Shown here in pieces: positions 5,912-22,417 of a stretch of DNA of 24,000 bases (position 1 is its first letter; every line of letters starts with the position of its first letter). Location of the stretch: contig NZ_STGY01000044.1 of assembly GCF_004912275.1 (NCBI RefSeq), positions 1-24,000 of the forward strand, read 5' to 3'. A program made the translations under genes and the position numbers. The notes beneath the pieces are model-generated. The model searched no databases, had not been told where the DNA came from, and saw nothing but the letters and a program-made list of their open reading frames with translations. The DNA comes from Glycomyces buryatensis. GTDB lineage: Bacteria; Actinomycetota; Actinomycetes; Mycobacteriales; Micromonosporaceae.

Positions 5912-6289
5912 TCACGGCGCCCAGACGACTTCAAGCGTGAACGGATCAGCGACATCATCGGTGTCTCTGGTGGGGATGCCGGCCCTCATGAGGATATCGG
6001 AGATCCGCTCGACACCTTCCTTCTCCATCTGCGCAGTGCGATCGATACCGAGGTCGTCCCAGGCACCGGTCTTCCAAGCCATCATGGCCTGGGCCGAATC
6101 CGATCGAGCCAGGAACCAGTTGATGAACACGCCGCGTTCACCCTCGTCCATCTCAACCGTGACCTGCGCTGCGGCAAGACCGGGTCGATTGAAGCCTTCA
6201 AACCACGGAATTCCGGCTTCTCCCAGGCACGCAACAACAGAGGCCTTGACGCGCTGGATCTCTTCCCGCGTAGCGTTCTCAAGCGACAC
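5912..6289 (-). CDS. Immunity-like paralog B (~125 aa)
   Basis: Motifs: AGIPWFEG, RGVFINW, AWDD, AGIPTRDTDD, DPFTLEVVWAP. The GTG at 6289 gives MSLENATREEI, which aligns with paralog A (MSLQSASYQEL). The alternative is the TTG at 6301 (ORF-track start). It overlaps the end of paralog C. Confidence 0.65.
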   Translation of the reverse strand: MSLENATREEIQRVKASVVACLGEAGIPWFEGFNRPGLAAAQVTVEMDEGERGVFINWFLARSDSAQAMMAWKTGAWDDLGIDRTAQMEKEGVERISDILMRAGIPTRDTDDVADPFTLEVVWAP

Positions 6290-6869: not shown

Positions 6870-7661
6870 CTAGCGGATGCCGGTTACACGGAGGGTGTAC
6901 GGGGAGCAGTTGTCCTGCAAGTCCTCGGTGAGGACGCGCTCCTTCATCAGCGCCACGGCCAGCTCATGAAGCTTGTGCTGCTTGATCTCGCCGGCCTCGG
7001 CCAGTGCGGAGTCATCGAGCTGGTTGTCCGCGAACGCCTGCACCACACGGCTGTTCAGCGGCTCGCCTACGAACCAGGACAGGTACACGCCGCGGCCCTC
7101 GTCCTCGAGCTGGTCGACGACTATCTCGACCCCGGGTTCAGTCCCGCGCTCCTGCTCCGGGAATACGACGTAACCAGCTCGGCCCAACCGCTCGCCGACC
7201 GCGTCGACCGTCGCGGCGAAAGGACCGAATTCGGCCTTCCCGTCGGGGAATCCTTCCGCGTCACGGATCATGGCGCGCAGCACTTCGACTGAGGCATTGT
7301 TGAGCAGTGCGAGCTCTCGCAGGTCATCCGCGGTCGGCTCGCCCTCCATGTCGAAGAACTCGGCCGTATAGCTCACTGCACCGGGATCGACACCCGCACG
7401 AGTGAGCGCCACCTCCGCGGCAACGCTCGGCTGCCGCTCGCTGTAGATCTCAACGATCCGCGCCGAAGCGCCACGGGAGGCAAGTCGCTCCAGCAACTCG
7501 ATCTCCACTGGCTTCTTACCGATACTCCGAGCGGTGAGCACAGTCCCGTCGGCAAGCCGAACGGCAGCATAGTTACGTCGCACCGGACTCCACCCCGAAG
7601 GGGAGTCACTTTGCCTGGCCCGAAAGGCCACCGCGCTGAGTTCCAGGCTGTCGATCGACAT
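6870..7661 (-). CDS. Fusion protein (263 aa): N-terminal degenerate deaminase-like module plus C-terminal immunity-like paralog D
   Basis: The ATG at 7661 lies 1 nt after the upstream stop, and GGAGGA sits in the upstream gene's last codons. The C-terminal half carries family motifs (RGVYLSWF, SPYTLRVTGIR). The N-terminal half has the spacing of a cytidine-deaminase-fold H-A-E...P-C-x-x-C, but reads P-V-E (7503-7511) and, 24 residues later, P-S-V-A-A (7416-7430). Confidence 0.7.
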   Translation of the reverse strand: MSIDSLELSAVAFRARQSDSPSGWSPVRRNYAAVRLADGTVLTARSIGKKPVEIELLERLASRGASARIVEIYSERQPSVAAEVALTRAGVDPGAVSYTAEFFDMEGEPTADDLRELALLNNASVEVLRAMIRDAEGFPDGKAEFGPFAATVDAVGERLGRAGYVVFPEQERGTEPGVEIVVDQLEDEGRGVYLSWFVGEPLNSRVVQAFADNQLDDSALAEAGEIKQHKLHELAVALMKERVLTEDLQDNCSPYTLRVTGIR

Positions 7662-7662
7662 G

Positions 7663-8046
7663 TCAGTCCTCCTGCATAACTTCCAGGGTGAAGGGATTCA
7701 TAGGGTCATCAGTGTCCCTGGTGAGGATACCGGCTGCGCTAAGCGCGGCTGCGATGGTTTCCATCCCGTGCTCGGTCTTGGTTCCGACATCATCAATCTC
7801 CGGATTATCCCAATCGCCACCCTCAAAAGCCTCCACCGCCACGCACCTCTCGTTGCGACCTGGCAACCAGAAGACGAAGACTCCACGGTCACCAGGCATA
7901 TCATCAAGGGCGACAATCGCAGCCGCGTGATCCGGCAACCTGTCAGCATCATTAACCCACGGGATCGCGGCAGCCTCGAGCGCACAGGTCACCCGCTCAA
8001 AAGTCTGCTTTAGCTCTTCAAGCGGGACGTTTTCCAGGTCCCTCAC
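7663..8046 (-). CDS. Immunity-like paralog E (127 aa)
   Basis: GTG at 8046 with GAGG 7 nt upstream. Motifs: AAIPWVND, RGVFVFW, GDWDN, AGILTRDTDD, NPFTLEVMQED. Confidence 0.7.
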   Translation of the reverse strand: MRDLENVPLEELKQTFERVTCALEAAAIPWVNDADRLPDHAAAIVALDDMPGDRGVFVFWLPGRNERCVAVEAFEGGDWDNPEIDDVGTKTEHGMETIAAALSAAGILTRDTDDPMNPFTLEVMQED

Positions 8047-8062
8047 AGTGCAGCCTCGCCTT

Positions 8063-8536
8063 TCAATGTTCGGTTATGTCCCCAGCATGTTCAGGACCGA
8101 GCACCGGTGGAAGCTGCGGATATCGACTGCGATACCGCTGGACGACTCTCCGACTCGACTCCGAGAGCTGCTTAACAGATGCCGGCCGGGCAGTTTCACC
8201 GTCGGGCTCAAAGTCGACAGTCCAGATCGCTACTCCAAACTCGTTGCCAGTCGCCCGAAGCAGAGTCCCGTCGTCCCTGAAAACACGCGAGATGCCATGG
8301 AGATGGCCTTTTCGGTACCACTCCTCGAAGACAAGGTCGCCATCCTCGTCGATCTCCCCTGTCGGGCCGTCTCGTACGCCGTCTTTGAAGCTCAGGAACT
8401 CGAATCCCCCATCGGACCGCTCCTCGCCGAGCACACCATCGAACAAGTAGTCGCCACGCCAATACATGGAATTGTCATCGATGGTCACGTCATCGCCAGA
8501 CGTTTCCAAAACTCTGGGATCGTAGTCAGGTTTCAT
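8063..8536 (-). CDS. MORN-repeat-variant protein (157 aa), YwqK-type antitoxin/immunity candidate
   Basis: It has repeated Y/F-x-x-G-x-x-(D/H)-G units (FKDGVRDGPTGEIDEDGDLVFEEWYRKGHLHGISRVFRDDGTLL), as in YwqK-family immunity proteins. Its start is 9 nt after the stop of the deaminase gene. Confidence 0.65.
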   Translation of the reverse strand: MKPDYDPRVLETSGDDVTIDDNSMYWRGDYLFDGVLGEERSDGGFEFLSFKDGVRDGPTGEIDEDGDLVFEEWYRKGHLHGISRVFRDDGTLLRATGNEFGVAIWTVDFEPDGETARPASVKQLSESSRRVVQRYRSRYPQLPPVLGPEHAGDITEH

Positions 8537-8545
8537 ATCACTACT

Positions 8546-9271
8546 CTATCCTAAGAAGCCGGTCTTATTTCCATACGGCCGGTCCCAGCCGTCCCAAGCA
8601 CCATCAGCCCCATCGAGCATCTGCGCACAGTTCTCGCAGCATGCCATTCGATCTCCATAACCCTCGGAGCCTTCCTTGTTCACTTTGACGTTCTCGACCA
8701 TGAATTCACTGAGATCAGGGTCTCTACCGTCACTTCGTGCATCACGTAGCGCTTCGTTCATCCCTCGCACTTCCGCATGTTGGCCGGGCACTCCATGATC
8801 GACTTCTATATCAGGGAGATCGGACCCCCTGGGGTTCGGCATGGTCTCGGGCTCCAGCTTCTTCCAACTGGGGTCACCATCGTCATATTTCTTGAACCGC
8901 TCCTTGAGTGGCGGTTCAAGAGATTCTTCGGTCACATCCATTTTCGTGTTGTGGTTGTAGTAAATACGACCACTTTCGCGGTCCCAGACGGCACTCATGC
9001 ACGGTTGACGCCTTCCAGGGCCCCAATACTCCTTGTATCGGTCGTCACTGACCTCTGCGAGCTTCTGAAGCAGCGCATCTCGCAGTCGTGCCCTGTCTGC
9101 AGCGGGGTCGCCGGTGGGGGTGAGATGTGTCGGCGCTTTATTGGGGTTGGAAGGTTTTACAGGATCCTTCTTCTTTTTCTTCTTCTTATTGGGATTCTTG
9201 AAATCCGCGTATGGATCAGTTACCGATTTGTCTTCGCGACCCAGACTGCCCGAGCCGTTTTTTTCCACCAT
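8546..9271 (-). CDS. Stand-alone YwqJ-like nucleic-acid deaminase toxin (241 aa) with N-terminal Lys-rich disordered region
   Basis: Zinc-deaminase signature: GQHAEVRGMNEAL (H-A-E codons at 8771-8779) and MACCENCAQM (C-x-x-C within 8627-8641). A beta-strand segment (CMSAVWDRESGRIYYNHN) precedes it. GC is about 50% against the ~2/3 backbone. An immunity-type gene follows. Confidence 0.7.
   Translation of the reverse strand: MVEKNGSGSLGREDKSVTDPYADFKNPNKKKKKKKDPVKPSNPNKAPTHLTPTGDPAADRARLRDALLQKLAEVSDDRYKEYWGPGRRQPCMSAVWDRESGRIYYNHNTKMDVTEESLEPPLKERFKKYDDGDPSWKKLEPETMPNPRGSDLPDIEVDHGVPGQHAEVRGMNEALRDARSDGRDPDLSEFMVENVKVNKEGSEGYGDRMACCENCAQMLDGADGAWDGWDRPYGNKTGFLG
9165..9187 (-). repeat. 23-nt homopurine (AAG)3-AAA-(AAG)3 tract encoding K7 within the deaminase gene
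   Basis: The plus strand reads tccttcttctttttcttcttctt. On the coding strand this is AAGAAGAAGAAAAAGAAGAAGGA (N-K7-D). Confidence 0.9.
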
Positions 9272-9305
9272 TTCGAGTTCTCTCTTGAGAGGTCGGAATT
9301 GAGGG

Positions 9306-9836
9306 CTAAGAAGGGCTGAGGCCGATAGCGGTGCGAATGATGCCGTAGGCGGCGGTGTCCTGTGCGATCAAGGCCGCATACATGCTGGCCAGCGCCGCCG
9401 TGAAGGCCACTGCACCGGATTGGTAGGCCGCCAGCACCGCTGGAGCGGCCGGGCCTGCCGATGAGACTTGCGACCACTGACTCGGACCCAAGATCACCAT
9501 CGGGGTAGGCAGGACCCTATAGCCGATCGCCTCCGCCGATTGCTTGGTCGCCTTCAGCGCCGTCACCGTGGCCATCATGGTTGCGCCCATGCTCTCCAGC
9601 GCGCCCGCGCACACCACCAGTGCCGCATCACTGCGCCCTATGAAGCCAGCAACATCGCCTCCCCAGCGCACCATCTCCTGGTAGTCATCGCCCTGCCAGC
9701 TCGCGCCCATCCCCGCGACTTCCCCTGCATGCTGCGCACCCAAAGTGGTCACCTTCCCGGCCGCAGCCGCAATGGCCGCACCGAGGGACATCAACTGGGC
9801 CGGATTGGCGTCAAGCGCCTGCTGAAACGTGGGCAT
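9306..9836 (-). CDS. WXG/LXG-like protein (176 aa), putative T7SS carrier/partner for the downstream toxin
   Basis: ORF 9306..9863 trimmed to the ATG at 9836 (MPTFQQALD), 1 nt after the upstream stop (TGAcATG). It has a W-x-G motif (GASWQGDDY) in a helical hairpin, then an Ala-rich helical C-terminal extension. GC3 stays high to the last codons. Confidence 0.6.
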   Translation of the reverse strand: MPTFQQALDANPAQLMSLGAAIAAAAGKVTTLGAQHAGEVAGMGASWQGDDYQEMVRWGGDVAGFIGRSDAALVVCAGALESMGATMMATVTALKATKQSAEAIGYRVLPTPMVILGPSQWSQVSSAGPAAPAVLAAYQSGAVAFTAALASMYAALIAQDTAAYGIIRTAIGLSPS

Positions 9837-9837
9837 G

Positions 9838-10197
9838 TCAGGCCCGCACCGACGGTCCGCCATTGATGGTGGGCACTTGGAAACCGCTCAGGTCAGATTC
9901 GAAGGGTTTGAAGTCGGCGGCTCCGTCTTCATCGGCCTTGTCCCAGCTACGTGCGACTTTCGTGAGCACGCTGTGGGTGTCAGACAAGTGCTCGTGGAGC
10001 TCCTGCATGTCCTCTTTGAAGTCGTCGGCAAACTCCTTCGCCCCATCTGCGCACATGAAGCCGCGGTTGGCGGTTTCCGCCCGCTGGGCCGCGCGCACCA
10101 CGTCCTGCGGCAGGCTCTTCGCCTCGCTCGACAACTGCTTCATCTTCTGCGCACCGGAAAGTATCCGGGCGCTCTCGATCATCACAATGCCGACCAT
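9838..10197 (-). CDS. Small (119 aa) alpha-helical protein, WXG100-like / LXG-associated helper candidate
   Basis: ORF 9838..10239 trimmed to the ATG at 10197, with GGAGG 8 nt upstream. It is predicted all-helical (…EFADDFKEDMQELHEHLSDTHSVLTKVARSWDKADEDG…) and tightly coupled to the WXG/LXG-like gene. Confidence 0.55.
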   Translation of the reverse strand: MVGIVMIESARILSGAQKMKQLSSEAKSLPQDVVRAAQRAETANRGFMCADGAKEFADDFKEDMQELHEHLSDTHSVLTKVARSWDKADEDGAADFKPFESDLSGFQVPTINGGPSVRA

Positions 10198-10275: not shown

Positions 10276-11130
10276 TCAGCGAGTGGCTTCCGCCCCAGCC
10301 TGTTGGGTTCCGGTGTCTCCGTTGCCGTTCTCCAGTGGCCATACCGTGGCCTCGACCGAGCCGACAAGTTCCAGCGGGCCCACCAGTGACGCCGTTCGCG
10401 CGACGGTGAAGTCGTCCAGAGCGAGCAGGCTGATGCCGCCGCGGCTTTGGGCAACTGCGGCGTAGTAGGCACCGGTGCCCCGGTCCTGGAAGACCCAGCC
10501 CGGTCTGGTGTCGGTCGGAATCGTGGGCACGCCTCCCGCCCGCCGCGGGTCCGGCAGGGCGCCGGTGGAAGCGGTGTCGGGCGCGAACGGCGACGTCGGG
10601 TAGTGCGGCTGGGGTGCCGAGCCTTCTGGGTCGGTCGGGGTTTCGTTGTAATCAGGCACTTGATACCTCGTGGGATCGCCGGATACAGGGATGGGCGGCG
10701 GGTTCATCGGCTGGTCGGGGACCGCGATGAGGGCGCGGACCTCCACCTTGCCGGCGACGGTGTTGACGGCGACCACTCCGATGCCGAGTGCCACCAGGTC
10801 AAGGCCCACCGCGAGGAGGACGCGCAGGTTCGGGTCGAGTCCGGTACCGAAGCGCGCCAGAGAGAACAGTGCAACAGCAAGCGCGAACACGACGAGTCCG
10901 GCCATCGCACCGGCGAGCGCGATCGGCCGCGAGACCCGCGGGGCGGGGGCGGACGGCCACTTCTCGGCGGCGCGGACACCGCCGAGTGCGATCGCCGAGA
11001 GCGCGGCCAGCGCGAGACCGGCGACGGCGAAGGCGATCGCGGCGGCGGTGAGCCGGCCGGCGATGTCGTCGATGTAGTCCACGTAGGGCTCCAGATCGTC
11101 GGGCTTGCGTTGTGTCGGTTCGGGCTCCAT
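10276..11130 (-). CDS. Membrane protein (284 aa), about 4 TM helices plus a Pro-rich linker and C-terminal extracytoplasmic domain; function unknown
   Basis: Four hydrophobic stretches include AAAIAFAVAGLALAALSAIAL, IALAGAMAGLVVFALAVALF and LLAVGLDLVALGIGVVAV. It is the first gene of the minus-strand toxin operon, divergent from the T4SS operon. Confidence 0.55.
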   Translation of the reverse strand: MEPEPTQRKPDDLEPYVDYIDDIAGRLTAAAIAFAVAGLALAALSAIALGGVRAAEKWPSAPAPRVSRPIALAGAMAGLVVFALAVALFSLARFGTGLDPNLRVLLAVGLDLVALGIGVVAVNTVAGKVEVRALIAVPDQPMNPPPIPVSGDPTRYQVPDYNETPTDPEGSAPQPHYPTSPFAPDTASTGALPDPRRAGGVPTIPTDTRPGWVFQDRGTGAYYAAVAQSRGGISLLALDDFTVARTASLVGPLELVGSVEATVWPLENGNGDTGTQQAGAEATR

Positions 11131-11183
11131 TGTGCGGCCCGTGCACGCTATCGAGCGTAGGACACCGACCTCCCCCAGTTTAG

Positions 11184-11199
11184 TGTCGGATTCCCGACA
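11184..11199. promoter_or_regulatory. Candidate operator palindrome in the divergent intergenic region between the toxin operon and the T4SS operon
   Basis: The palindrome is TGTCGG-attc-CCGACA (6-bp arms). A TATGAT -10-like hexamer lies at 11316-11321 on the plus strand, with only a weak -35. Purely sequence-based. Confidence 0.2.
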
Positions 11200-11421
11200 T
11201 GGAGTGATCGCCCGCAGGTCATTGCGGCCATTGATCGATTCCGATTCACTTGACGATGCTAGGTTCGCGGTCGCGCGTCGAACCGGCGAACGTGCACTCC
11301 GTCAGGGTCGCGGCATATGATGAGGGCAGACCCCGTGAAGGGTTGGGAGCCAAGAGACATGAGTGAAACTTGCATAACGTGAGGTCCATGTGACCCGTGT
11401 GGCAAGAGATGGGAATGAACG

Positions 11422-11703
11422 ATGAGAGAGACCTTCTGGACCATGGCGGCACACATGTCGCCAGTGGCGTCCGCCGAGATCAATACCAGCGGGATCATCG
11501 GCTTCTTCCTCTCGAAGATCGCCCCGATCCTCCTCGCCATCCTCGGCTTGATCTTCATCGCCCGCGCCAATAAGGGCGAGGTCAGCCGCGTACTCACCTC
11601 CTCCACCATCGCCATCCTCGGCATCGCCTTCATTGCCGGAGCGGTCGTCCTGGTGGCCGTCGGCGGCGGTCTCGTCGACGTCCTCTTCAGCAACGAGGAT
11701 TAA
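11422..11703 (+). CDS. VirB2/TrbC-like small two-TM protein (93 aa), T4SS pilin-like subunit
   Basis: It has two hydrophobic helices (IIGFFLSKIAPILLAILGLIFIA and IAILGIAFIAGAVVLVAV). It is the first gene of an operon containing VirB3-, VirB4- and VirB6-like genes. The start is uncertain (ATG 11422, 11443 or 11455). Confidence 0.5.
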   Translation: MRETFWTMAAHMSPVASAEINTSGIIGFFLSKIAPILLAILGLIFIARANKGEVSRVLTSSTIAILGIAFIAGAVVLVAVGGGLVDVLFSNED

Positions 11704-11787
11704 CCAGCCCCCACACTCCTCGGCGAAGTCCGCTAGCCGAGCCCGAACCATTGCAATACGTACTACCGGCCTGGACGGAGGACGCCA

Positions 11788-12177
11788 ATGCGCTTGCGCA
11801 CCGACGATGACATCTACCGTGCCCGGCTGCTCTACCTCGGCCCTCCCGGCTACACGCTCCCCGTCCACCTCCCCTACGGCCAGTACGGCGCCTTCGCCGG
11901 CCTGCTCGCGCTGTTCATGTTCATCCGCTGGGGCATCACCGGCGACGTCGAGCTCTTCCCCGCCATCGAGATCTCCCTCGCCCTCGTCGCGACCTCGCTG
12001 ATCTTCCGATACGTCGACGCCGACCGCCCCGCCACCAGCGTCCTGCGCACGCTCCTCACCGACTGGAAGCACACCCGCGACGCCGGGCACGAGCAGCGGA
12101 TCCCGGCGTTCACCACCCGGTCGATCCGTCTGCGTCCCACACTCGTTGAGTCCGCCCGACCTGAGGAGCGCCTATGA
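11788..12177 (+). CDS. VirB3/PrgI-like two-TM protein (129 aa)
   Basis: GGACGGAGGA precedes the ATG. It has two TM helices (YGAFAGLLALFMFIRWGI and AIEISLALVATSLIF). An ATGA overlap links it to the VirB4-like ATPase, the usual VirB3-VirB4 arrangement. Confidence 0.55.
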   Translation: MRLRTDDDIYRARLLYLGPPGYTLPVHLPYGQYGAFAGLLALFMFIRWGITGDVELFPAIEISLALVATSLIFRYVDADRPATSVLRTLLTDWKHTRDAGHEQRIPAFTTRSIRLRPTLVESARPEERL

Positions 12178-15100
12178 GCGGCGAGGATCGCCGACAGCCC
12201 GTCGCCAAGTTCTCGGCGCCCCGGCCCCCGGCGCCGGTGCGCGACCGGGAACGGCACCGCGACGAGGAGGACGACGACACCACGGCGCTGGCCGACGCGA
12301 TCTTCCGCTCGGAACCGGCGCCGGCGCCCGCGCCGCACCCCCCGACCGCCAACGCCCAGCCTCCGGCCTCACCCCCGCCGACCTCCCACATCTTGGGAGT
12401 CCAGCAGGGCACGCCTCAGGACGCCGCCCGACACGCGATGCCACCTGCGTCGCCGACGCCGCCGTCCACCGGTGGTCCACAGAGTTATCCACAGAATCAG
12501 GCAAGTTATCCACAGGGGTATCCACAGCGTTACCCACAGGCTCCGACCAGCGGGAATCCACAGAGTTATCCACAACAAGCACCGGGTTATCCACAGGGAA
12601 CCGGAAGTTATCCACAGGCCGGTAACCAGCAGCGCGGCAGTGTTTCCACAGGTCACCGGAATGACGCCCAAACCGGTCGGAACGGGAAGGTCCCGAGCCA
12701 GGACCTCGTCCCGATCAGGCAGGCGAACACCGACGCCGCGACGCTCGACAAGGGCGACGCCAAACCGACCCGCGTCCCCAAACCGGCGAAGAAGGAGAAG
12801 GAGCGCCAGCCGCTCCGCGAGCTCTCGCTGACCGAGATCGCCGGGCACGCGACCTTCACGCCCGCGTCGGTCACCGCCTGGTACGTCCTGCCCGGCGTCC
12901 GCTGGTCCTTCCGCCCCGATCTGGAGCGCGAAGCCCTCATCACCGCGATCTCGGAGCAGTTCGCCGGCCTCGCCGGGATGCGCATCCACATGCGTCGCAC
13001 CACCAAGCCGTTCGCCGCCGACGACTGGGCCCGCAACGTCGACCGGTACACCGCCAAGCCGCTGCGCACCGCCCCCGGCGGCACCTCCTGGGCCGAGCAC
13101 CTGGTCGCCGCTCAGCGGCACCTGCACTCGCTCTCCCACGCCGAGGGCCAGACCTTCCTGGGTATCACCTTCGCCCGCCGGTCCACCTTCGACAACCTGG
13201 GCGAGAAGGTCGGCCGCGTCTTCGGCCGCGGCACCAAGCTCTCCGAGCGTGAGCGCATCGAGAAGCGCAGCCAGCAGTTCGACGAGGTCCTCGGTTCCTT
13301 CGGGGTCCGCGCTCGCCGCGCCACCACCGCCGATCTCGAATGGCTCGTCTTCCGCTCCGTCGCCCTCGGCATGGAGCCCCCGCGCCTGCTCTCCGGCTCC
13401 GCCTCGGACTGGGACACCGGCGACGTCCTCGCCCTCACCGAGTCCATCGAGCGCTACCGCAGCCCCTACGGCTCCACGGTCAAGCTCGTCAACCGCCTCA
13501 CCGGCGAGGAGAAGCACACCGCCGTCCTGACCGTCGGCCGCATGGAGGAACTGGAGATCCCCCAGCGCCACGAGCCGTGGCTGCACTTCCACGAGCGCTG
13601 CCCCTGGCCGCTCGAGATCTCCAGCCGCGTCGACATCCTCGGCCCCGGCGAGGCCTTCCGCGACCTCGACCACCGCCTGCGCCTCATCCGTTCACAGCAG
13701 CGCGACTACGACGAGCACGCCATGGACGCCCCGCCCGAGCTCCAGCGCCTCGCCGAGCGCGCCCTCGGCGTCGGCGACGAGATGACCACCGGCCTGCCCA
13801 TCGACGCCGCCCGCGCCCACGGCTGGCACCGCATCGCCGTCACCGCCGACACCAAAGAGGAATGCCTGGAGCGCGCCCGCACGCTCATGAACATGTACCA
13901 GCGGGACATGCGCATCAGCCTCCAGCACCCCAAGAACCAGGACTGGCTCGCCCGCGAGTTCATCCCCGGTGAGCCCGTCGCCGGCACCGGCTACATCCGA
14001 CGGATGCCCGTCAAGCTCTTCGCCGCCGCCCTCCCCCAGGCCGCCTCCACGGTCGGCGACCAGCGCGGGGACCTGATCGGCCGCACCGCCGGCACCAGCC
14101 GCAGGCCCGTCTTCCTCGACCTCCACTTCGCCACCGAGGTCCGCGAGAAGTCCGGCCTGAGCGTCTTCGTCGCCGAACCCGGCGGCGGCAAGTCCACGCT
14201 CATGGGCGCGCTCGGCTACCTGGCCGCCAAGCGCGGCGTCCAGGTCACCCTGCTCGACCCGTCCGGTCCGCTCGCCCGCCTCTGCGACATGCCCGAGCTC
14301 GCGCCGCACTCGCGCGTGCTCAACCTGACCGGCTCCGAATACGGGACGCTCGCGCCCTACGCGCTCATCCCCTCGCCCAGACGCGAGCACTACGCCGATT
14401 CGCCCGACGGCCAGCGCGAATACGACATAGCCGTCTCCAACGCCCGCTCCGAGCGGCGCATGCTGGTCCAGGACATCTGCGCCATGCTCCTGCCCCCGCA
14501 GATCCAACGCGAGGCGAGCACCGCCAGGCTGCTGCGCCACGCGGCCCGCCACGTCCCGGCCGAAGAGGACTCCGCCCTCGAGGACATCGTCGAATCGCTC
14601 CAGGACGCCGAGGACCACGTCACCGGCGACGGCGCCGAACTCGCCGCGCTCCTGCTCGACACCGCCGAGATGCCGCTCGCGAAGCTCTTCTTCGGCAACG
14701 CCGACAAGGGCGTCCTCGAGGACGACACCGCGCTCACCGTCATCACCATGTCCGGTCTGCGCCTGCCCGACCTGGCCATCGAGCGCGAGTACTGGAGCGC
14801 CGAAGAGGCCCTGGCCTTGCCAATGCTCCACACCGCCCACCGCCTCGCGGTGCGCCGCGCCTACGGCGGGGACATGAACCGCCGCAAGCTCGTCGGCCTG
14901 GACGAGGCCCACTTCATGGAGGGCTGGAAGTCCGGCCGCAGCTTCCTGGTCCGCCTCGCCCGCGACTCCCGCAAGTGGAACCTGGCCGCGCTCGTCGCCA
15001 GCCAGAACCCCAAGGACATCCTGAGCCTCGACGTCCAGAACCTCGTCTCCACCGTGTTCGTGGGCCGCATCGCCGAGGACCGCGACGTCGCGGAGGAAGC

Positions 15101-15314
15101 GCTCAAGATGCTCCGCGTCCCCACCGGAGTCGGCTACGAGAACGTCCTCGCCTCACTCAGCGAGGTGGCCGCCGAAGACACCGAACGCCTCCGCTACCGC
15201 GAGTTCGTCATGCGCGACGTCGACGGCCGCGTCCAACGCATCCGCGCCGACTTCAGTTATGTGAGAGGACTACTCGACTACCTGAACACCACGCCCGGGG
15301 AGGAGAAGCGGTGA
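12174..15314 (+). CDS. VirB4/TraE/PrgJ-like T4SS ATPase (1046 aa) with a ~215-aa disordered N-terminal extension
   Basis: Walker A is AEPGGGKST (GGGKST at 14181-14198). Walker B is KLVGLDEAH (DE at 14901-14906). A downstream LVASQNPKD motif is present. GC3 is high from the ATG at 12174, so the extension is translated. The extension is Pro-rich, with S/G/R-Y-P-Q repeats. Confidence 0.85.
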   Translation: MSGEDRRQPVAKFSAPRPPAPVRDRERHRDEEDDDTTALADAIFRSEPAPAPAPHPPTANAQPPASPPPTSHILGVQQGTPQDAARHAMPPASPTPPSTGGPQSYPQNQASYPQGYPQRYPQAPTSGNPQSYPQQAPGYPQGTGSYPQAGNQQRGSVSTGHRNDAQTGRNGKVPSQDLVPIRQANTDAATLDKGDAKPTRVPKPAKKEKERQPLRELSLTEIAGHATFTPASVTAWYVLPGVRWSFRPDLEREALITAISEQFAGLAGMRIHMRRTTKPFAADDWARNVDRYTAKPLRTAPGGTSWAEHLVAAQRHLHSLSHAEGQTFLGITFARRSTFDNLGEKVGRVFGRGTKLSERERIEKRSQQFDEVLGSFGVRARRATTADLEWLVFRSVALGMEPPRLLSGSASDWDTGDVLALTESIERYRSPYGSTVKLVNRLTGEEKHTAVLTVGRMEELEIPQRHEPWLHFHERCPWPLEISSRVDILGPGEAFRDLDHRLRLIRSQQRDYDEHAMDAPPELQRLAERALGVGDEMTTGLPIDAARAHGWHRIAVTADTKEECLERARTLMNMYQRDMRISLQHPKNQDWLAREFIPGEPVAGTGYIRRMPVKLFAAALPQAASTVGDQRGDLIGRTAGTSRRPVFLDLHFATEVREKSGLSVFVAEPGGGKSTLMGALGYLAAKRGVQVTLLDPSGPLARLCDMPELAPHSRVLNLTGSEYGTLAPYALIPSPRREHYADSPDGQREYDIAVSNARSERRMLVQDICAMLLPPQIQREASTARLLRHAARHVPAEEDSALEDIVESLQDAEDHVTGDGAELAALLLDTAEMPLAKLFFGNADKGVLEDDTALTVITMSGLRLPDLAIEREYWSAEEALALPMLHTAHRLAVRRAYGGDMNRRKLVGLDEAHFMEGWKSGRSFLVRLARDSRKWNLAALVASQNPKDILSLDVQNLVSTVFVGRIAEDRDVAEEALKMLRVPTGVGYENVLASLSEVAAEDTERLRYREFVMRDVDGRVQRIRADFSYVRGLLDYLNTTPGEEKR
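12473..12650 (+). repeat. Array of ten co-oriented DnaA-box-like 9-mers, five of them perfect TTATCCACA, inside the VirB4-like CDS
   Basis: Perfect TTATCCACA at 12485, 12506, 12566, 12587 and 12608. One mismatch: GTATCCACA at 12518 and TTACCCACA at 12530. Weaker: TGGTCCACA at 12473, GAATCCACA at 12554 and GTTTCCACA at 12642. All spacings are multiples of 3 (12/21/24 nt), except 34 nt before the last, weakest site at 12642. Confidence 0.9.
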
Positions 15315-17224
15315 CCAGACCCCTCAGACTGCTCCTCGTTCTCTTCGCCGCCGCCGGTGCCCTGGTCTTCATGCCGAGCGGCGCCAATGCGCAGAGCGCT
15401 GGCGACGAATGCACCGACTACGAGTGGCACACCTACTGGAACGACTGCGTAGACGAACTTCCAGAAGGCCAGGAACTCGACTGCGAGGTGGCACCGCAAC
15501 CGGCCACCCCCCAATCCGGCATGGCCGGCTGGTTCGCCGAGCCCGCCAACCTCGACAAGAGCGAGGGCATCGGCACCTACAGCCGCTACGGCTACGCCGG
15601 TTACCAATTGCCGATGTACGGCGCGCAGGAAATGAGCATCGGCGGTTCCTGCGTCGATTCCCCGACCATTCCCAATGGCGCCGACACCGCCAATGCACTG
15701 GCCAATATGGAATTCAACGTCTCCCTCGCCACGGTCGGCGCCGCGAACTCGATGCGCCAGGCCGCCTGGGAGCCGGACCGCATGTGGGGCTGGTCGAACG
15801 GCTTCATGGAGACGGTCTCGAAGGTCATCTTCGACCAGGTCTTCACCGTCTTCGGCGCGGTCACCGTCGGCGTCATCGGCATCTACCTCCTGTGGCGTTC
15901 CCGCCAGGCCGACATGAACAACGCCGTGACCACCGTGGCCTGGGCCGCGCTGATCCTGGTGCTGGTGACGGCGGTCGTGCGCTGGCCGGTGCAGGCCGCG
16001 CAGTACACCGATGAGGCGCTGAAGATCGGCATGAACCTCAGCACGACGCTCATCAGCGACGATGCCGCTGAGGGTTGTGAGCGCCACGAGAACCTCACTC
16101 GAGAAGAGTACGAGGAGCTCAAGCGGAACAACCGGGTCGACCCGACCTACTGCATCGACACCCGGACTGCGGCCGTTACCGCTTCAGACACCGTCTCCAG
16201 CGAGGTCCTGTACCAGAACTGGCTCCGGACCATGCTCGGCCAGAGCGAAGAGGTCACCTTCGAGAGGTCGAACGGCGAAATTGTCGAGGAGAACGGCGAC
16301 CCGGTCGTGCGCGACTCGAACACCGCCTACAAGTACGGACCCGCCCTCTTTGCCGCGCAGGCGTTCTCCTGGACGGAATCGCAACAGGCAGAGCAGTCGG
16401 CCGGTGAACGCAACGACCTCATCGAGCAGAAGCAGGAGCTCTGGCGCAACCTGGTAGCCCAGATCCAGCAGGAAGACCCGGAGGCCTACTCGCACCTGAA
16501 AGGCGAGCGTGCCTGGGAGCGGACCGGCACCGGCCTGCTCGCCCTGCTCACCGCGATCATGTTCGCGCTCTTCGACATCACCGCTTCGGTGCTCATCATT
16601 CTGGGCTTCATGATCGTGCGATTCGCGATCGTGGCACTGCCGATCATCGGCACCATTGCCCTGCTCCGACCGGCCGGCGGACCCTTCAAGCGACTGGTCA
16701 ATACCGTTCTCGGTGCGGTCATCAACGTTGCCGTCTTCTCGATCGCCGCCGTGGTCTATATCTTCGCGGCCAGCCGTATCCTCGGCACCAGCATGCCCAT
16801 CTGGATGCAGGTCGTCCTCATTGGAATGCTGGGCGTGGCCGCATGGATGCTATTGCGGCCCTTTAGAAGGATCGCCGGTCTCGCAGCCGGTGGCGGCCCG
16901 ACCGATGCGCTTCTGGGAAGACGCGGCGGCGGAGACAATGACTCCGGCAGTTCTGGCGGCCCAGGAGGTCGGGGAGGCGACGGGAGCAATGGCCGCCCAG
17001 AGGGCACCTCCGGTCCGATCAATGACCTCAATAGGAACGTCGAAGAGCTCCGCCCGGCCGAGACCGCCGAGAACATTCGGGACATCCGCGACCAGACCGA
17101 GCCGGTACCCGGTCAGCCCTCCGGCTCCGGAGCCACCACCCCCGAGTCCGCTTCCAGCAGCAGCGGAAGCAGCGGCGGGGGTGGAGGCGGCACCGACGTC
17201 TACCGACCACCCCAACGGGAGTGA
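15311..17224 (+). CDS. VirB6/TrbL-like polytopic membrane protein (637 aa) with signal peptide and Gly/Ser-rich C-terminal tail
   Basis: The GTG at 15311 overlaps the VirB4 stop (GTGA), with GGGGAGGAGAAG upstream. This is preferred over the track's longer 14975 start, which lies inside VirB4. The signal peptide is LLLVLFAAAGALVFMPSGANA. There are at least 6 TM helices. The tail is low-complexity (GGGDNDSGSSGGPGGRGGDG...SSSSGSSGGGGGG). Confidence 0.65.
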   Translation: MTRPLRLLLVLFAAAGALVFMPSGANAQSAGDECTDYEWHTYWNDCVDELPEGQELDCEVAPQPATPQSGMAGWFAEPANLDKSEGIGTYSRYGYAGYQLPMYGAQEMSIGGSCVDSPTIPNGADTANALANMEFNVSLATVGAANSMRQAAWEPDRMWGWSNGFMETVSKVIFDQVFTVFGAVTVGVIGIYLLWRSRQADMNNAVTTVAWAALILVLVTAVVRWPVQAAQYTDEALKIGMNLSTTLISDDAAEGCERHENLTREEYEELKRNNRVDPTYCIDTRTAAVTASDTVSSEVLYQNWLRTMLGQSEEVTFERSNGEIVEENGDPVVRDSNTAYKYGPALFAAQAFSWTESQQAEQSAGERNDLIEQKQELWRNLVAQIQQEDPEAYSHLKGERAWERTGTGLLALLTAIMFALFDITASVLIILGFMIVRFAIVALPIIGTIALLRPAGGPFKRLVNTVLGAVINVAVFSIAAVVYIFAASRILGTSMPIWMQVVLIGMLGVAAWMLLRPFRRIAGLAAGGGPTDALLGRRGGGDNDSGSSGGPGGRGGDGSNGRPEGTSGPINDLNRNVEELRPAETAENIRDIRDQTEPVPGQPSGSGATTPESASSSSGSSGGGGGGTDVYRPPQRE

Positions 17225-17227
17225 CCC

Positions 17228-17770
17228 ATGAATCGCGCCCTCCGGATCATCTTCTCCCGCTACGGCATCGTGGTCATCATCCTGGTGCTGGTACTCGGCG
17301 CGATCGCGCTCGCCTCGGACAATGGACGGACCCCATTGACCGGAAACGACGTGGAGACCGACGACTCGACCGAGTCCTCCGAGCCATCGGACGAGATCAC
17401 CGACGACGACGGTTTCTACACCGAGGACTGCGAAGCCGATGACTGCTATGCGGCCGAAGAGCTTCCGCAGGAGGCCGTGGACCGGGCCGTGGAATTCGCC
17501 GAAGCCTGGCTCAATCCGAACGGTCTCGACCCCGACGCCTGGTACGACTCGATCGCTCCGTTTCTGACCACCGATCGCGCCGAGTTGATGGTGGGCGTCG
17601 ACCCCGCCACGCTCCCCGCCCAGAGCATCGACGGCGACGCGACGACCGAGGCTTCCAAGGTCAGCATCCCGATGAACACCGGCACCTTGATACTCACCAT
17701 GGCCGAAGGCTCCAATAGCTGGACCGGAGGCGACTGGCTGGTCTCCGCCATCGACTGGGAGGCATCATGA
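17228..17770 (+). CDS. N-terminally anchored protein (180 aa) with acidic linker and NTF2-like C-terminal domain; possible VirB8/TcpC-like T4SS component
   Basis: GGGAG lies 8 nt upstream. It has a single TM helix (YGIVVIILVLVLGAIALA). The C-terminal ~110 aa (AVEFAEAWLNPNG...WLVSAIDWE) resembles small alpha+beta conjugation proteins. The position between the VirB6-like gene and the hydrolase supports this call. Confidence 0.45.
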   Translation: MNRALRIIFSRYGIVVIILVLVLGAIALASDNGRTPLTGNDVETDDSTESSEPSDEITDDDGFYTEDCEADDCYAAEELPQEAVDRAVEFAEAWLNPNGLDPDAWYDSIAPFLTTDRAELMVGVDPATLPAQSIDGDATTEASKVSIPMNTGTLILTMAEGSNSWTGGDWLVSAIDWEAS

Positions 17771-18942
17771 GCACCATCCCCGACGGCGAAACCGAATCCG
17801 GGCCGGATGCCAACTCCGAGCTCGACGAGCCCCGCAGGCGCCTCCCCAAACGGCTTCGCCCCTTCATGTGGACCATTGCGGTCTTGACGGTGTGCTGCCT
17901 CGGGGTGGTCGTCTCGGTCGTGCAGCTCCTCTCGGACCAGGACGACGGCGATACCGGCAACCTGCTCGCCGCCGGCTGCGGTTCCGATATCGTGATCGAT
18001 CCCGGGGCCGAGTTCCCCCGAATCGGCGACTACAGCTCCGACCAGGTCAAGAACGTCGCCATCATCATCTCGGTAGGCCAGGAGATGGACCTGCCGAGCC
18101 GCGCCTGGATCATCGCGGTCGCGACCGCGATGCAGGAATCGCGACTGACCAACCTCGGTCACCTCGGCGGCGCCAATGACCACGACTCCCTGGGGCTGTT
18201 CCAGCAGCGGCCGTCCTCGGGTTGGGGAACGCCGGAGGAGATCCAGGATCCGGTCTACGCCTCGACCAAGTTCTACGAGAAGCTCCAGACCGTCGAGAAC
18301 TGGGAAACGCTGCCGCTTACCGTTGCCGCCCAACGAGTTCAGATCTCCGCGTTTCCCGATGCCTATGCCAAGCACGAGCCCGTCGCGGTCGACATCGTCA
18401 ATACCCTGACCGGTGGCGGGGGCCGGGTTTCGGCGGTCTCCACCGACATGGGGACCTGCGCGCAGATGGGCGAGTTGTCGGCGGCGGGCTGGATCAGTCC
18501 GACCGAGGGACCGATCTGGTCGGGCTTCCAGACTCCGGAGCGGCCCACGCACAATGGGGTGGACATCGGGGCTCCGCGGGACGCCAAGGTCGTGGCGGCG
18601 ACCGCCGGCACGGTGATCACCTCGGAGTGCAATGCCAGCCAGGGCGGTCAGCCGTACTCATGCGATGTGGACGGCGGCGTCGATGTCATGGGCTGCGGCT
18701 GGATGGTCAATATCCTGCACGCCGGTGACTACATCACCCGCTACTGCCACTTCGGAACAGCGCCGGTGGTGAAGGAAGGCGACGTGGTCCAGGCCGGGCA
18801 GCTCCTCGGGTATGTCGGATCTTCCGGTCACTCGTCGGGCCCGCACCTGCACTACGAGGTTCACCTGAACGCCGACCGCAGCCCTGCCGGAGCGGTCGAT
18901 CCGGTCGCCTTCATGAACCAGGTCGGCGCCCCGCTCGAATAG
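17767..18942 (+). CDS. Membrane-anchored bifunctional cell-wall hydrolase (391 aa): N-terminal muramidase/transglycosylase-like domain plus C-terminal M23 metallopeptidase
   Basis: An ATGA overlap links it to the upstream gene. It has one TM helix (MWTIAVLTVCCLGVVVSVV). The N-terminal domain carries ATAMQESRLTNL...SLGLFQQR. M23 motifs are HNGVDIGAP and GSSGHSSGPHLHYEV. Confidence 0.8.
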   Translation: MSTIPDGETESGPDANSELDEPRRRLPKRLRPFMWTIAVLTVCCLGVVVSVVQLLSDQDDGDTGNLLAAGCGSDIVIDPGAEFPRIGDYSSDQVKNVAIIISVGQEMDLPSRAWIIAVATAMQESRLTNLGHLGGANDHDSLGLFQQRPSSGWGTPEEIQDPVYASTKFYEKLQTVENWETLPLTVAAQRVQISAFPDAYAKHEPVAVDIVNTLTGGGGRVSAVSTDMGTCAQMGELSAAGWISPTEGPIWSGFQTPERPTHNGVDIGAPRDAKVVAATAGTVITSECNASQGGQPYSCDVDGGVDVMGCGWMVNILHAGDYITRYCHFGTAPVVKEGDVVQAGQLLGYVGSSGHSSGPHLHYEVHLNADRSPAGAVDPVAFMNQVGAPLE

Positions 18943-20525: not shown

Positions 20526-21500
20526 TCAGTCCTCGGCAACGTCGAGTAGACCGTCGACATCCTCCAGCGAATCCACGCAATCCCCTTGCACACCAACCGT
20601 AAACGCGAACGCTTCGACGTTGAACGCCTTGAGTTCCGTTTCAACATTGACCATTGTGATTGGTGCCTCAGCATCCTCGACGAGCGTCGTGTCGAGCACC
20701 TCACCGGTGGCGTCGCTGTTCAGAGCTTCCCACTCTGCGATGGCCGAGATGAGGTCATCGGGAGTGGGTCCTGTGTAGGTATCGCACTGGTACTCGGCAG
20801 CGGCCTCCGAATCACGAAGCCTCACAACGGTAGCGATGAAATCCGAGGCGAGGGCTTCCGGATCGACCTCCGAGCCAGGCTCGTCGGTTGGCTCCGGTTC
20901 CAGTTGCACTGCATTGTAAACACAGAAGGAGTCGCCGTCCTCCTGGACGGTGACGGTGAATTCCTCGGGCCGCTGTCCTCCCTGAGAGATGTAGGTGACC
21001 GTCGCAGCTATGGAAATACCATCAGCGGATGCGACCGGGGCGTCGGTGGAGACATCGATATCGGAGATCCCACCCAGCTCTTCTCCGTATGTCTCTCGGA
21101 TGACGTCGAGGTCGCCCGCCGTTAGCTCCGGGGAGGCGCCATCACAGAGCGTGTCCTCGGCCCGCGAGGCATCGTTGTTGGAGCCGAACCGCAAATAACG
21201 CGCGGCCGCGTTGACCGCATCGGTCGGGGCCTCATCCCGAGGGTCGGTGTCCTCAGTGCTCCCGCCGGAAGCGAATCCGGGAGCAACCCAGCCGCCGAGG
21301 GCGAGCAGCAGGACCCAGCCCCCGACAAGCGCACCGACCCGTGTCCAGGTCCGAGCAGGCTCAGGAAACTCCGCCTCCTCAACCTCCCCGCGGCCGCCGC
21401 CCATCCCGGGACCCGCGGCTCCGGCAGGAGGGCGCTGGAAACTGCCGCGACCGGCCCTCCGCCGCCTGAACACCCGCCGAACACCCCTGCCAAACCTCAT
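20526..21500 (-). CDS. Membrane-anchored protein (324 aa) with two tandem small alpha+beta (NTF2-like) domains; function unknown
   Basis: It has an Arg-rich N-terminus and one TM helix (VGALVGGWVLLLALGGWVA). Two repeats of about 110 aa follow, each with a conserved Cys pair context (TLCDGASPEL...SFCVYN and EYQCDTYTGP...GDCVDS). The start is uncertain (ATG 21500 or 21404). Confidence 0.5.
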   Translation of the reverse strand: MRFGRGVRRVFRRRRAGRGSFQRPPAGAAGPGMGGGRGEVEEAEFPEPARTWTRVGALVGGWVLLLALGGWVAPGFASGGSTEDTDPRDEAPTDAVNAAARYLRFGSNNDASRAEDTLCDGASPELTAGDLDVIRETYGEELGGISDIDVSTDAPVASADGISIAATVTYISQGGQRPEEFTVTVQEDGDSFCVYNAVQLEPEPTDEPGSEVDPEALASDFIATVVRLRDSEAAAEYQCDTYTGPTPDDLISAIAEWEALNSDATGEVLDTTLVEDAEAPITMVNVETELKAFNVEAFAFTVGVQGDCVDSLEDVDGLLDVAED

Positions 21501-21673
21501 ACGAGCAACTTACCGTCCCACCCCAACCCCCACAACACTCCGCCTTACTTGTCGCGGAAGCAATCCGGATAGTTCTCAATCGAGATCCCCTACCCAGAGA
21601 CCCCACCGATGAAGCTTCCAGTCTGCCATCGGTGTTGCCGGGTGCATCCGTTCTCCGGGGACTAGCAGGAGGG

Positions 21674-22417
21674 TCAGTCTGCTGAAACCGAGCTCAACTG
21701 CTCAAGGACCGCAGGTAGATAACTTTTGGTCATCCATTCATTCAAGACCTCTGCAGAAATTAGACAGTCGGTTCCCAGATCGGTAGAATCACAATACTTA
21801 TGATAAGTCAATGGCTGATCGTAGTAATCCTGCTCGGCGGTGACCCGAATGCTAAGCCCAACCGCAAAATCCTGAGTCTCGCCCCATGCCCCAACAATAT
21901 AGAGTTCTCTGTTGCGAAACAGGCCATTCAATAGGTACACCTCACCATCGCTCCAGTCAGACGAAATCGGATCGATTGACGATGTGAGCACCTCATTCAT
22001 ATCAGCTTGCCCGCTTGACTGAAATCCGCCAAGGTTGTCATATGATGCGCTTGCACCTCCTGGCTCTACCGAATCACCGGTGAATACCCGCGCAGTGAAA
22101 TCAATGCTGCCAACTTCCTCCTCCCCCTCAAGTAGAGCGATCTGATTGTCGCAGCCAATGAAATCTTTCTCAGATTTCTCAGACCAGCTCTCCGTAAGAC
22201 CTTCTCCGAAGACAACATCGGATGCATCGCTAGTATTGAGCAATTCACAAGGTTGTACCTGATCGATGATCTCCGAAGTGTCATTACCTTTGTCGGTCGT
22301 GTCATTCGATCCGAAGCATGCGCTCAGAGCGAATGAAATCAACACCACCAGGGTCAATCCAAATCGGTGCGATGGCAACCGCCGAGACCGCTCAGATCGG
22401 AGCATATCTATGAACAT
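21674..22417 (-). CDS. Lipoprotein (247 aa), DUF3558-like
   Basis: Signal peptide plus lipobox (LVVLISFALSAC). A P-C-x-L-L motif (VQPCELLNT) follows shortly after the lipobox, as I recall for DUF3558-type actinobacterial lipoproteins. The start abuts the upstream stop (TGAATG). GC is about 47-50%. Confidence 0.6.
   Translation of the reverse strand: MFIDMLRSERSRRLPSHRFGLTLVVLISFALSACFGSNDTTDKGNDTSEIIDQVQPCELLNTSDASDVVFGEGLTESWSEKSEKDFIGCDNQIALLEGEEEVGSIDFTARVFTGDSVEPGGASASYDNLGGFQSSGQADMNEVLTSSIDPISSDWSDGEVYLLNGLFRNRELYIVGAWGETQDFAVGLSIRVTAEQDYYDQPLTYHKYCDSTDLGTDCLISAEVLNEWMTKSYLPAVLEQLSSVSAD

Follow-up and report, generated by a model that had tools for sequence, protein, structure and literature searches.

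A conserved array of predicted DnaA boxes within the coding sequence of a VirB4-like ATPase gene in Glycomyces and related genera

The first 24,000 nucleotides of contig NZ_STGY01000044.1 of Glycomyces buryatensis (RefSeq assembly GCF_004912275.1; this whole stretch is called the window below) contain a six-gene operon resembling part of a type IV secretion system (T4SS). Near the beginning of its third gene, which encodes a VirB4-like ATPase, lies a dense array of sequences that match the DnaA box, TTATCCACA. I propose that the array is a DnaA-binding cluster acting on initiation of replication or on expression of the operon, titration of DnaA being the likeliest primary role, and I put the probability of this view at roughly 0.55. 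The best reading, predicted from sequence, is that of a DnaA-box cluster of the kind exemplified by datA of Escherichia coli, the DnaA-box clusters (DBCs) of Bacillus subtilis and D78 of Streptomyces coelicolor, unusual in its location within a coding sequence. The array has the box density, the sites with no mismatch or one and the paired boxes of such clusters. It does not have an intergenic location: it lies within an open reading frame (ORF; 12174-15314) and is translated as repeats of Tyr-Pro-Gln (YPQ).

The array occupies positions 12473-12650 and consists of ten 9-mers with the core TCCACA, all on the plus strand, that begin at 12473, 12485, 12506, 12518, 12530, 12554, 12566, 12587, 12608, and 12642, giving start-to-start spacings of 12, 21, 12, 12, 24, 12, 21, 21, and 34 nt. 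Five are perfect copies of TTATCCACA, two differ from it at one position and three at two, all within 178 bp. The initial annotation had listed these ten co-oriented sites and had seen no further perfect copy in the window. Both statements hold, for the sites recur at the same coordinates, on the same strand and with the same spacings, and the rest of the 24 kb contains no perfect copy. A shuffled window is expected to contain 0.02 perfect boxes, and five copies were reached in none of 100 shuffles. Sites with at most two mismatches are expected by chance about 25 times per window, counting both strands, or about 0.2 times per 178 bp, as against the ten observed in a single orientation. The density of boxes is at least that of the B. 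subtilis clusters and at least that of oriC regions in the sister order, Micromonosporales, where 7-10 sites are spread over 550-760 bp. Several boxes stand in same-orientation groups with gaps of 3 bp, namely two pairs (12473/12485 and 12554/12566) and one triple (12506/12518/12530). The double boxes read TGGTCCACAgagTTATCCACAg and GAATCCACAgagTTATCCACAa, the triple box TTATCCACAgggGTATCCACAgcgTTACCCACAg (Table 1).

Nine of the ten sites are in the frame of the ATPase, as x-(Y/N/G)-P-Q, written AGT or GGT and then TAT CCA CAG (in general xxT TAT CCA CAG). The original claim that the sites encode Y-P-Q repeats stands for these nine and not for the tenth, which lies in another frame. The gene has a G+C content at third codon positions (GC3) of 0.91. 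Outside the array, TAT serves for 1 of 18 tyrosines, CCA for 1 of 64 prolines, and AGT for 1 of 54 serines; inside it, the same codons serve for 6 of 7, 10 of 16, and 5 of 9, respectively, counts that, set against the GC3, confirm the local collapse of codon bias noticed at the outset. When the arrays of all lineages are considered together, the x-P-Q triplets use CCA in 178 of 192 instances, and the x codon ends in T, likewise in 178 of 192, whichever residue it specifies (Y, N, R, H, S, F, or D). Among NNY codons outside the arrays, 6.2% are NNT. All lineages write YPQ as TAT CCA CAG, while other Pro-Gln pairs in the same genes are written CCG or CCC followed by CAG. The codon after Gln begins with G at 30 of 38 perfect sites, which limits the next residue to G, A, E, D, or V. 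The (S/G)-Y-P-Q peptide repeat is probably in large part a by-product of the frame in which the extended consensus, RGTTATCCACAGG, is tolerated.

Orthologous DNA was gathered by looking up exact proteins and by scanning species-representative genomes; the orthologue from Haloglycomyces (P0006), whose DNA is not on record, falls outside the DNA comparison. Four or five perfect copies of the box lie on the plus strand in all 16 species of Glycomyces, and the 12 species with five share the spacing 21-60-21-21. Five perfect boxes are also found, spaced 66-21-21-45, in Stackebrandtia endophytica, Stackebrandtia albiflava, Candidatus Stackebrandtia excrementipullorum, and a metagenomic relative (L083), while a third lineage, with 59% GC (L204), has five perfect boxes and four with one mismatch. 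The run of three boxes at 21-bp phase occurs in Stackebrandtia and L204 as well, and in every lineage the array is on the sense strand. Between Glycomyces and Stackebrandtia, four-fold degenerate sites within the ATPase domain are saturated (48-53% identical), and 13-19% of the A/T-ending codons in that domain are kept. The 9-mer with its flanks is identical in Glycomyces, Stackebrandtia, and L204, and the spacers between boxes differ while the boxes do not.

Within Glycomyces, the segment 12429-12653 is near-invariant, and on both sides of it lies indel-rich, hypervariable DNA encoding the N-terminal extension of the ATPase. The first box of triple B (12506) is the same in 16 of 16 species, and the AAT CCA CAG of box C is invariant too. 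The two weaker boxes of triple B vary, by both silent and amino-acid-changing substitutions. The out-of-frame box is exactly TCCACAGGT in 13 of 16 species, reads CCCACAGGT in L014, and is lost in L012 and L015. An outcome envisaged at the start, that orthologues keep YPQ repeats in GC-rich codons with no 9-mer, is the opposite of what is seen, since at least three lineages keep both the exact 9-mer and its rare codons. This upholds the initial suggestion of a DNA-level constraint beyond the protein repeat; a foreign origin of the A/T-ending codons, offered along with it, is not supported. The proposed null, recent tandem duplication of one unit, is refuted by the presence of the array in 16 Glycomyces, four Stackebrandtia-type loci, and one further metagenomic lineage. 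Saturation of synonymous sites, retention of T-CCA-CAG, and the copy out of frame together rule out recent duplication, a pure peptide repeat, and simple selection for rare codons. The array, as these alignments indicate, is maintained by selection on the DNA itself.

The motif is that of known DnaA sites. The 38 perfect sites give R-G-TTATCCACA-G-G, and with these flanks the consensus equals boxes R1 (tGTTATCCACAGGg) and R4 (aGTTATCCACAGt) of E. coli oriC, as checked against 5,425 E. coli genomes. It equals also the perfect member of a double box in the dnaA promoter, agTTATCCACAg, found in three genomes of Micromonosporales. In vivo, E. coli DnaA binds almost only to pairs of boxes in the same orientation and 2-3 bp apart, as judged by chromatin immunoprecipitation with sequencing (ChIP-seq) and mutagenesis (Stringer et al. 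2024; PMC11317965). The double boxes identified there are cTTGTAAACAgagTTATCCACAg at datA and cTTCCTGACAgagTTATCCACAg at oriC, with R4 of oriC as ...ACAgagTTATCCACAg (PMC11317965). The pairs of the array, a weak box followed after 3 bp by a perfect one, match these double boxes at datA and oriC. Three Micromonosporales-type loci (L207, L208, and L209) have 10-12 of their 14-17 TCCACA-core sites in the rpmH-dnaA and dnaA-dnaN spacers, and these oriC boxes are mostly gTTGTCCACAg, mixed with agTTATCCACAg. All three loci have a conserved double box, xxxTCCACAagTTATCCACA, with a 2-bp gap in the rpmH-dnaA spacer. In Micromonosporales, therefore, native DnaA sites include an A-type box flanked in this way. 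L207 (4799-5350, 7460-8000) has in addition two TTGTCCACA boxes 21 bp apart.

Similar layouts were sought in metagenomes by scanning for three perfect boxes at 21-bp spacing. At least 120 contigs, ranging from 25 to 63% GC, have them, and 80 of the loci were read. In 20 of these 80, dnaA and/or dnaN lies beside the array, as found by tblastn using E. coli DnaA and DnaN queries, which are validated by their strong matches. The commonest further spacing in the arrays next to dnaA or dnaN is 12 bp, and most of the 80 loci have no long ORF across the array. As for distance from the origin, about 0.3 Mb separates rpmH-dnaA from the orthologous operon in a single metagenome-assembled genome (MAG) of the sister lineage, and in Frankia a conserved VirB4-like gene, only possibly an orthologue, is 35-96 kb from the origin (PMC2266912). 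From the identity of the motif, its flanks, and its pairing I infer that the sites of the array are very probably DnaA sites.

In the model I favor, DnaA would first fill the five perfect boxes and then spread cooperatively onto the neighboring weak boxes, by way of the pairs and triple with 3-bp gaps and the phasing of 21 bp, two turns of the helix. The outcome would be a DnaA oligomer, a nucleoprotein complex over about 180 bp that does not fire, there being no unwinding element. Such a complex would hold back initiation at oriC by sequestering or inactivating DnaA at a site on the chromosome. Since the array sits in the third of the operon's six genes, about 300 bp from the start, DnaA bound there should hinder RNA polymerase as well and may block transcription of the operon. 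Transcription would in turn evict DnaA, as read-through does IHF at datA, and expression of the T4SS-like apparatus would thereby be coupled to the availability of DnaA.

There are precedents for this model. In B. subtilis, initiation is restrained by DnaA-box clusters located away from oriC, and Actinobacteria too are reported to have such clusters (PMC3245932; PMC3479198); it is the density and affinity of boxes that determine stable binding of DnaA (PMC2533591). DnaA bound within transcribed DNA can block RNA polymerase, to go by what PMC11317965 says of its references 27-29, and read-through transcription tunes datA (PMC10950094). Titration is favored as the primary role because the sister order runs the operon without a box, because the operon promoter has no box, and because ten sites exceed what a roadblock needs. 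The initial annotation had suggested a DnaA-titrating site of a mobile element, or a roadblock; titration and roadblock are still the best candidates, and only the attribution to a mobile element has failed to find support.

Comparison with known systems makes plain what is familiar about the array and what is not. Like it, datA of E. coli is a cluster of boxes outside oriC and includes a double box of the form weak box-gag-TTATCCACAg (PMC11317965). It too is without an unwinding element; it keeps initiation in check, and transcription that enters it modulates its activity (PMC10950094). Unlike the array, datA lies downstream of a tRNA operon and not in a coding frame, needs an IHF site, which has no counterpart here, and has fewer boxes over a longer stretch. 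The DBCs of B. subtilis share with the array dense consensus boxes and form stable complexes with DnaA (PMC2533591). They are mostly close to oriC, their deletion leads to early initiation, and some repress neighboring genes; they are, however, intergenic, while the array is intragenic, strictly co-oriented, and dictates a peptide repeat. With boxes R1/R4 of E. coli oriC and the double box bound in vivo the array shares the 11-13-nt sequence GTTATCCACAG[G] and the pairing across gaps of 2-3 bp, but not the DNA unwinding element, the IHF and Fis sites, or the opposed arrays of oriC. The roadblocks at the asnC terminator and guaB are, like the array, DnaA boxes in transcribed or coding DNA, proposed, as far as the citing account goes, to stop RNA polymerase. 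They are single boxes, that of guaB unbound in vivo, as compared to ten sites conserved across an order. Plasmid iterons and the clt/TraB repeats of Streptomyces are, like the array, short direct repeats accompanied by a gene of conjugation type, but they are element-specific and co-vary with the protein that binds them, whereas the array consists of a universal DnaA box, is chromosomal, and has no gene for Rep or TraB.

D78 of S. coelicolor, as cited in PMC3479198 and PMC3245932, is an actinobacterial cluster of boxes outside oriC and a negative regulator of replication, similar in this to the array, whereas Streptomyces boxes are of the TTGTCCACA type, unlike those considered here (PMC4285127). 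I found no earlier account of DnaA boxes that form a conserved array in a coding frame and so impose a peptide repeat, with the qualification that the array and D78 are possibly the same locus. D78 is said to have been characterized by Smulczyk-Krawczyszyn et al. in 2006 and reportedly has an affinity for DnaA above that of oriC, its deletion leading to over-replication and extra copies slowing growth.

Several considerations weigh against a DnaA-binding cluster with titration as its primary role. None of 60 Micromonosporales-type loci has the array, and orthologues that do without it mean that it is not needed for the operon as such. The best-studied high-affinity box of Actinobacteria (Streptomyces and Mycobacterium) is TTGTCCACA, not TTATCCACA (PMC4285127), and the comparison with oriC is to three Micromonosporales-type regions, that is, to the sister order and not to Glycomycetales itself. 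The metagenome scan selected for spacing of 21 bp, so that part of the match in layout is partly circular. All eight stable DnaA clusters mapped in B. subtilis are intergenic (PMC2533591), and the one intragenic precedent, guaB, was not confirmed by ChIP-seq in E. coli (PMC11317965). Finally, titration and regulation of the operon are not separable here. If the oriC or dnaA promoter of Glycomycetales contains RGTTATCCACAG, that would favor the DnaA reading.

The strongest competitor reverses the order of importance: DnaA bound to the array would be primarily a roadblock or attenuator, confining production of the ATPase, membrane protein, and M23 hydrolase to times when free DnaA is scarce or abundant, and titration would be incidental. 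The position of the array 300 bp into a tight operon, on the sense strand in every lineage, is what one would expect of such a device; DnaA roadblocks in transcribed regions have been described (references 27-29 of PMC11317965, as relayed there), and a link to the gene is suggested by the fact that throughout an order the array has been kept in this gene alone. It is difficult to see, however, why a roadblock would call for five perfect and five weak boxes, far more than it needs, and why orthologues of the operon in the sister order would have no boxes in or near it. No box is found at the operon promoter except in one genome, and the intragenic precedent at guaB is unbound in vivo (PMC11317965). 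I regard a primarily transcriptional role as unlikely, though deserving to be kept in view. Less probable by a good deal is that the sites serve a protein other than DnaA, either a binder specific to the lineage or locus, in which case the T4SS-like apparatus would have sites resembling iterons or clt, or a response regulator that recognizes direct repeats. In Streptomyces-type conjugation, cis-acting clt repeats lie in or beside the transfer gene, the host operon here is of conjugation type, and many proteins that bind repeats could be accommodated by direct repeats set one or two helical turns apart. But bona fide DnaA boxes of E. coli and of sister-order dnaA promoters, taken with their flanks, have the very sequence of the 13-nt consensus, which is invariant between genera, while element-specific sites drift with their protein. 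Neither the operon nor the window has a candidate gene for a DNA-binding protein, a relaxase, or an FtsK-like translocase, and the plasmid paralogues lack the extension. The iteron-like sites for an element-encoded protein that had been suggested initially are unlikely for the same reason, namely that one motif, equal to the universal DnaA box and its flanks, is found unchanged from genus to genus.

The remaining explanations I consider very improbable. All sites are on the sense strand and rich in rare codons, as they should be if AGU UAU CCA slowed ribosomes within the linker or if the sequence GUUAUCCACAG in mRNA were bound by a small RNA or a protein. If rare codons as such were selected, however, no single codon would become fixed, and neither the wobble T before CCA for seven amino acids, nor the G that follows, nor the copy out of frame would be accounted for. 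The same motif occurs in nontranscribed oriC and promoter DNA of relatives, and no Rfam family matches the window. Pausing at rare codons was rejected on the counts of wobble T and CCA in x-P-Q triplets. It is scarcely more credible, and if anything less so, that a Tyr-Pro-Gln repeat was selected in the protein, its codons homogenized by duplication or gene conversion, and the match to the DnaA box a coincidence. That this can happen is illustrated by L131 (28% GC), where a GYPQQPP coding repeat yields TTATCCACA at exactly 21-bp spacing with ordinary codons; its sequence marks it as a true peptide-repeat case, and the motif alone is no proof. In the array, by contrast, spacers differ where boxes are identical, the codons are rare and are shared by genera that have reached saturation at synonymous sites, T-CCA-CAG persists through changes of amino acid, and one box is out of frame.

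Least probable of all is that the array is an additional origin of replication or that of an integrated mobile element. An origin is favored by the density of boxes, 10 sites in 178 bp where oriC regions of the sister order have 7-10 in 550-760 bp, but no 40-mers within 11900-13200 are lower in GC than the boxes themselves, which have 45%, and this region contains neither an AT-rich unwinding element nor repeats resembling DnaA-trios; the oriC of L207, by comparison, shows an obvious AT-rich stretch. By tblastn, dnaA and dnaN are absent from the window and from 6-10 kb in 21 related loci, though found in the positive control, L207, and no rep gene occurs in the window or within 6-10 kb in those 21 loci. 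The array is, moreover, inside a conserved ORF. A DnaA-dependent origin is thus very unlikely, and the idea of a mobile element is not supported: the locus is chromosomal and syntenic across two orders at 64-85% identity, and the window has no integrase, relaxase, coupling protein, or tRNA. With no unwinding element, no dnaA or dnaN, and no mobile-element gene, the array qualifies neither as an origin nor as a component of a mobile element.

In bacteria without Hda or SeqA, clusters of DnaA boxes away from oriC are considered a main means of restraining re-initiation. If the array binds DnaA, then such clusters can hide in genes. More tentatively, at somewhat less than even odds, it could be an order-wide, datA-like sink for DnaA written into the linker of an ATPase, so that a replication-control element and a coding sequence would share the same DNA and transcription of an envelope machine would be mechanically coupled to initiation. 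A widely conserved actinobacterial T4SS-like operon may then be linked to the replication cycle. A cluster inside a gene can be destroyed by synonymous recoding with the protein unchanged, which permits a clean test of titration against transcription. The array would also gauge how far a DNA-binding motif can shape a protein, through rare codons, fixed wobble bases, and constrained neighbors.

A second case comes from human-gut contigs of about 41% GC, with four perfect and three one-mismatch TTATCCACA boxes within mnmE/trmE (Pfam TrmE_N, MnmE_helical, and MMR_HSR1). The array is at about 2625-2700 in L105 and is found also in L086, L092, L108, L114, L136, L144, L146, L147, L156, L158, L159, and L162. 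In this gut Firmicute the boxes are on the antisense strand, encode LDNYVDKLDNYVDK / LDNYVDKLDNYVDKWINAVDK, and are about 4.5 kb from dnaA. The corresponding cluster of B. subtilis, jag-thdF, is intergenic, while the gut mnmE array is embedded in coding sequence, and coding-embedded DnaA clusters may from this case be more widespread. A protein search with the YPQ segment alone gave no scorable candidates for other array-bearing genes.

Table 1. Positions of the array, its boxes, and the genes of the surrounding operon in the window
Feature	Position	Strand	Description
Double box A	12473..12493	+	TGGTCCACA-gag-TTATCCACA-g; weak box at 12473, perfect box at 12485, 3-bp gap
Triple box B	12506..12538	+	TTATCCACA-ggg-GTATCCACA-gcg-TTACCCACA; one perfect and two one-mismatch boxes, 3-bp gaps
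Double box C	12554..12574	+	GAATCCACA-gag-TTATCCACA-a; weak box then perfect box, 3-bp gap
Perfect box	12587..12595	+	21 bp after the preceding perfect box
Perfect box	12608..12616	+	21 bp after the box at 12587; third of three boxes in 21-bp phase
Tenth box	12642..12650	+	GTTTCCACA; two mismatches; in another frame, GTT TCC ACA = V-S-T
Conserved nucleotide island	12429..12653	+	Encloses the entire array; from codon alignment of 16 Glycomyces orthologues
Upstream conserved block	12429..12449	+	CGACACGCG..CCACCTGCG; peptide R-H-A-x-P-P-A, rare codons
Host gene	12174..15314	+	1046-aa VirB4/TcpF-like AAA_10 ATPase (Pfam, NCBIfam)
93-aa gene	11422-11703	+	First gene of the operon
129-aa gene	11788-12177	+	Second gene of the operon; ATGA overlap with the start of the ATPase gene
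Downstream operon genes	15311..18942	+	637-aa polytopic membrane protein, 180-aa protein, M23 peptidase (17767-18942)

The gene in which the array resides is VirB4-like, as had been claimed: its product, 100% identical to an 'ATP-binding protein' of Glycomyces buryatensis, has an AAA_10 domain (PF12846, E 2.3e-24) with the P-loop motif GGGKS and resembles TcpF (NCBIfam, E 1.5e-23), although far under the equivalog cut-off. A search of PDB sequences with the ATPase gave no match. The extension, residues 1 to about 215 (12174-12818), is rich in Pro, Gln, and Ala (18% Pro; 88% polar or small residues) and differs in length between annotated orthologues, the extremes being about 20 and about 580 residues; by composition it is evidently a disordered linker of variable length. 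An extension of some 215 aa, which according to the initial annotation VirB4 ATPases normally lack, is absent from the ATPase of a Streptomyces plasmid, pRVR2, whose operon has the same gene order.

The six-gene operon is compact and common to Glycomyces sambucus, Stackebrandtia endophytica, and two metagenomic relatives, and the ATPase is 64-85% identical in protein across Glycomycetales and Micromonosporales. The two small upstream genes recur in L001, L002, L083, and L204 and in the operon of the plasmid paralogue. Paralogues on plasmids of Streptomyces, Rhodococcus, Enterococcus, Clostridium, and others are 31-37% identical, and megablast gave no plasmid match to the locus. The 637-aa membrane protein matches CD3337/EF1877 weakly and is VirB6-like. 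The operon falls short of a complete conjugation system, consisting of an ATPase, a VirB6-like membrane protein, a hydrolase, and small proteins; Pfam and NCBIfam scans of the 21 ORFs in the window found no integrase, relaxase, or coupling protein. Its gene content and synteny mark it as a conserved chromosomal T4SS-like module. A scan for sigma-70 promoters in 10800-13200 gave none, and the single terminator-like match there is at the chance rate.

The annotated starts of several orthologues are placed downstream of the array (P0007, 910 aa; P0010, 1021 aa). An open frame and N-terminal motifs (..AKFSAPRP.. and ..TALADAVF..) put the true start upstream in L204 (9407-10000) and L022 (upstream of 6001). 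In such records the array looks as if it were intergenic or in a spurious small gene, and for this reason it is missed by annotation-based scans of intergenic DNA.

The conserved block at 12429-12449 is invariant in Glycomyces, with rare codons CGA, CCA, and CCT. In two species of Stackebrandtia (L002, about 10531-10545; L022, about 5967-5981) the block runs into an inverted one-mismatch box, TTATCCGCA, on the minus strand; in Glycomyces this inverted box is disrupted, the block nevertheless being conserved. Candidatus Stackebrandtia excrementipullorum alone has an extra perfect box (cTTATCCACAag; L019, 4803) some 65 nt ahead of the operon's first gene; at the other Glycomycetales loci, the surroundings of the operon promoter contain no box with at most one mismatch. 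A box at the promoter as an autoregulatory loop was rejected, there being only the one genome. An analogous array of TTGTCCACA in Micromonosporales orthologues was likewise rejected, as none exists; in the frame used here that box would encode Cys-Pro-Gln. Virgisporangium ochraceum and two related MAGs have the 13-mer AAGTTATCCACAG (L035, 13621 and 13655; L042, 13913; L077, 13849) and no array in the ATPase gene. The 13-mer is about 100 nt upstream of a plus-strand gene that follows the M23 peptidase gene, and it is upstream of a -10-like element, TAnnnT; these sites are probably a DnaA-regulated promoter.

Upstream of the operon, on the minus strand (6870-9863), are genes with weak matches to WXG100, a YwqJ-like deaminase, and an XOO_2897-like deaminase, and on the corresponding side of the operon G. 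sambucus has DUF2563 and PPE-like genes. By these matches the genes at 6870-9863 look like polymorphic-toxin or type VII secretion cargo adjoining the T4SS-like operon. At the other end of the window, 21500-24000 has a GC content of 49-54%, as compared to 64% for the whole window and about 70% for the operon. Its low-GC ORFs on the minus strand (21674-22417, 22418-23374, and 23492-23878) have no Pfam match, and the segment may be recently acquired DNA.

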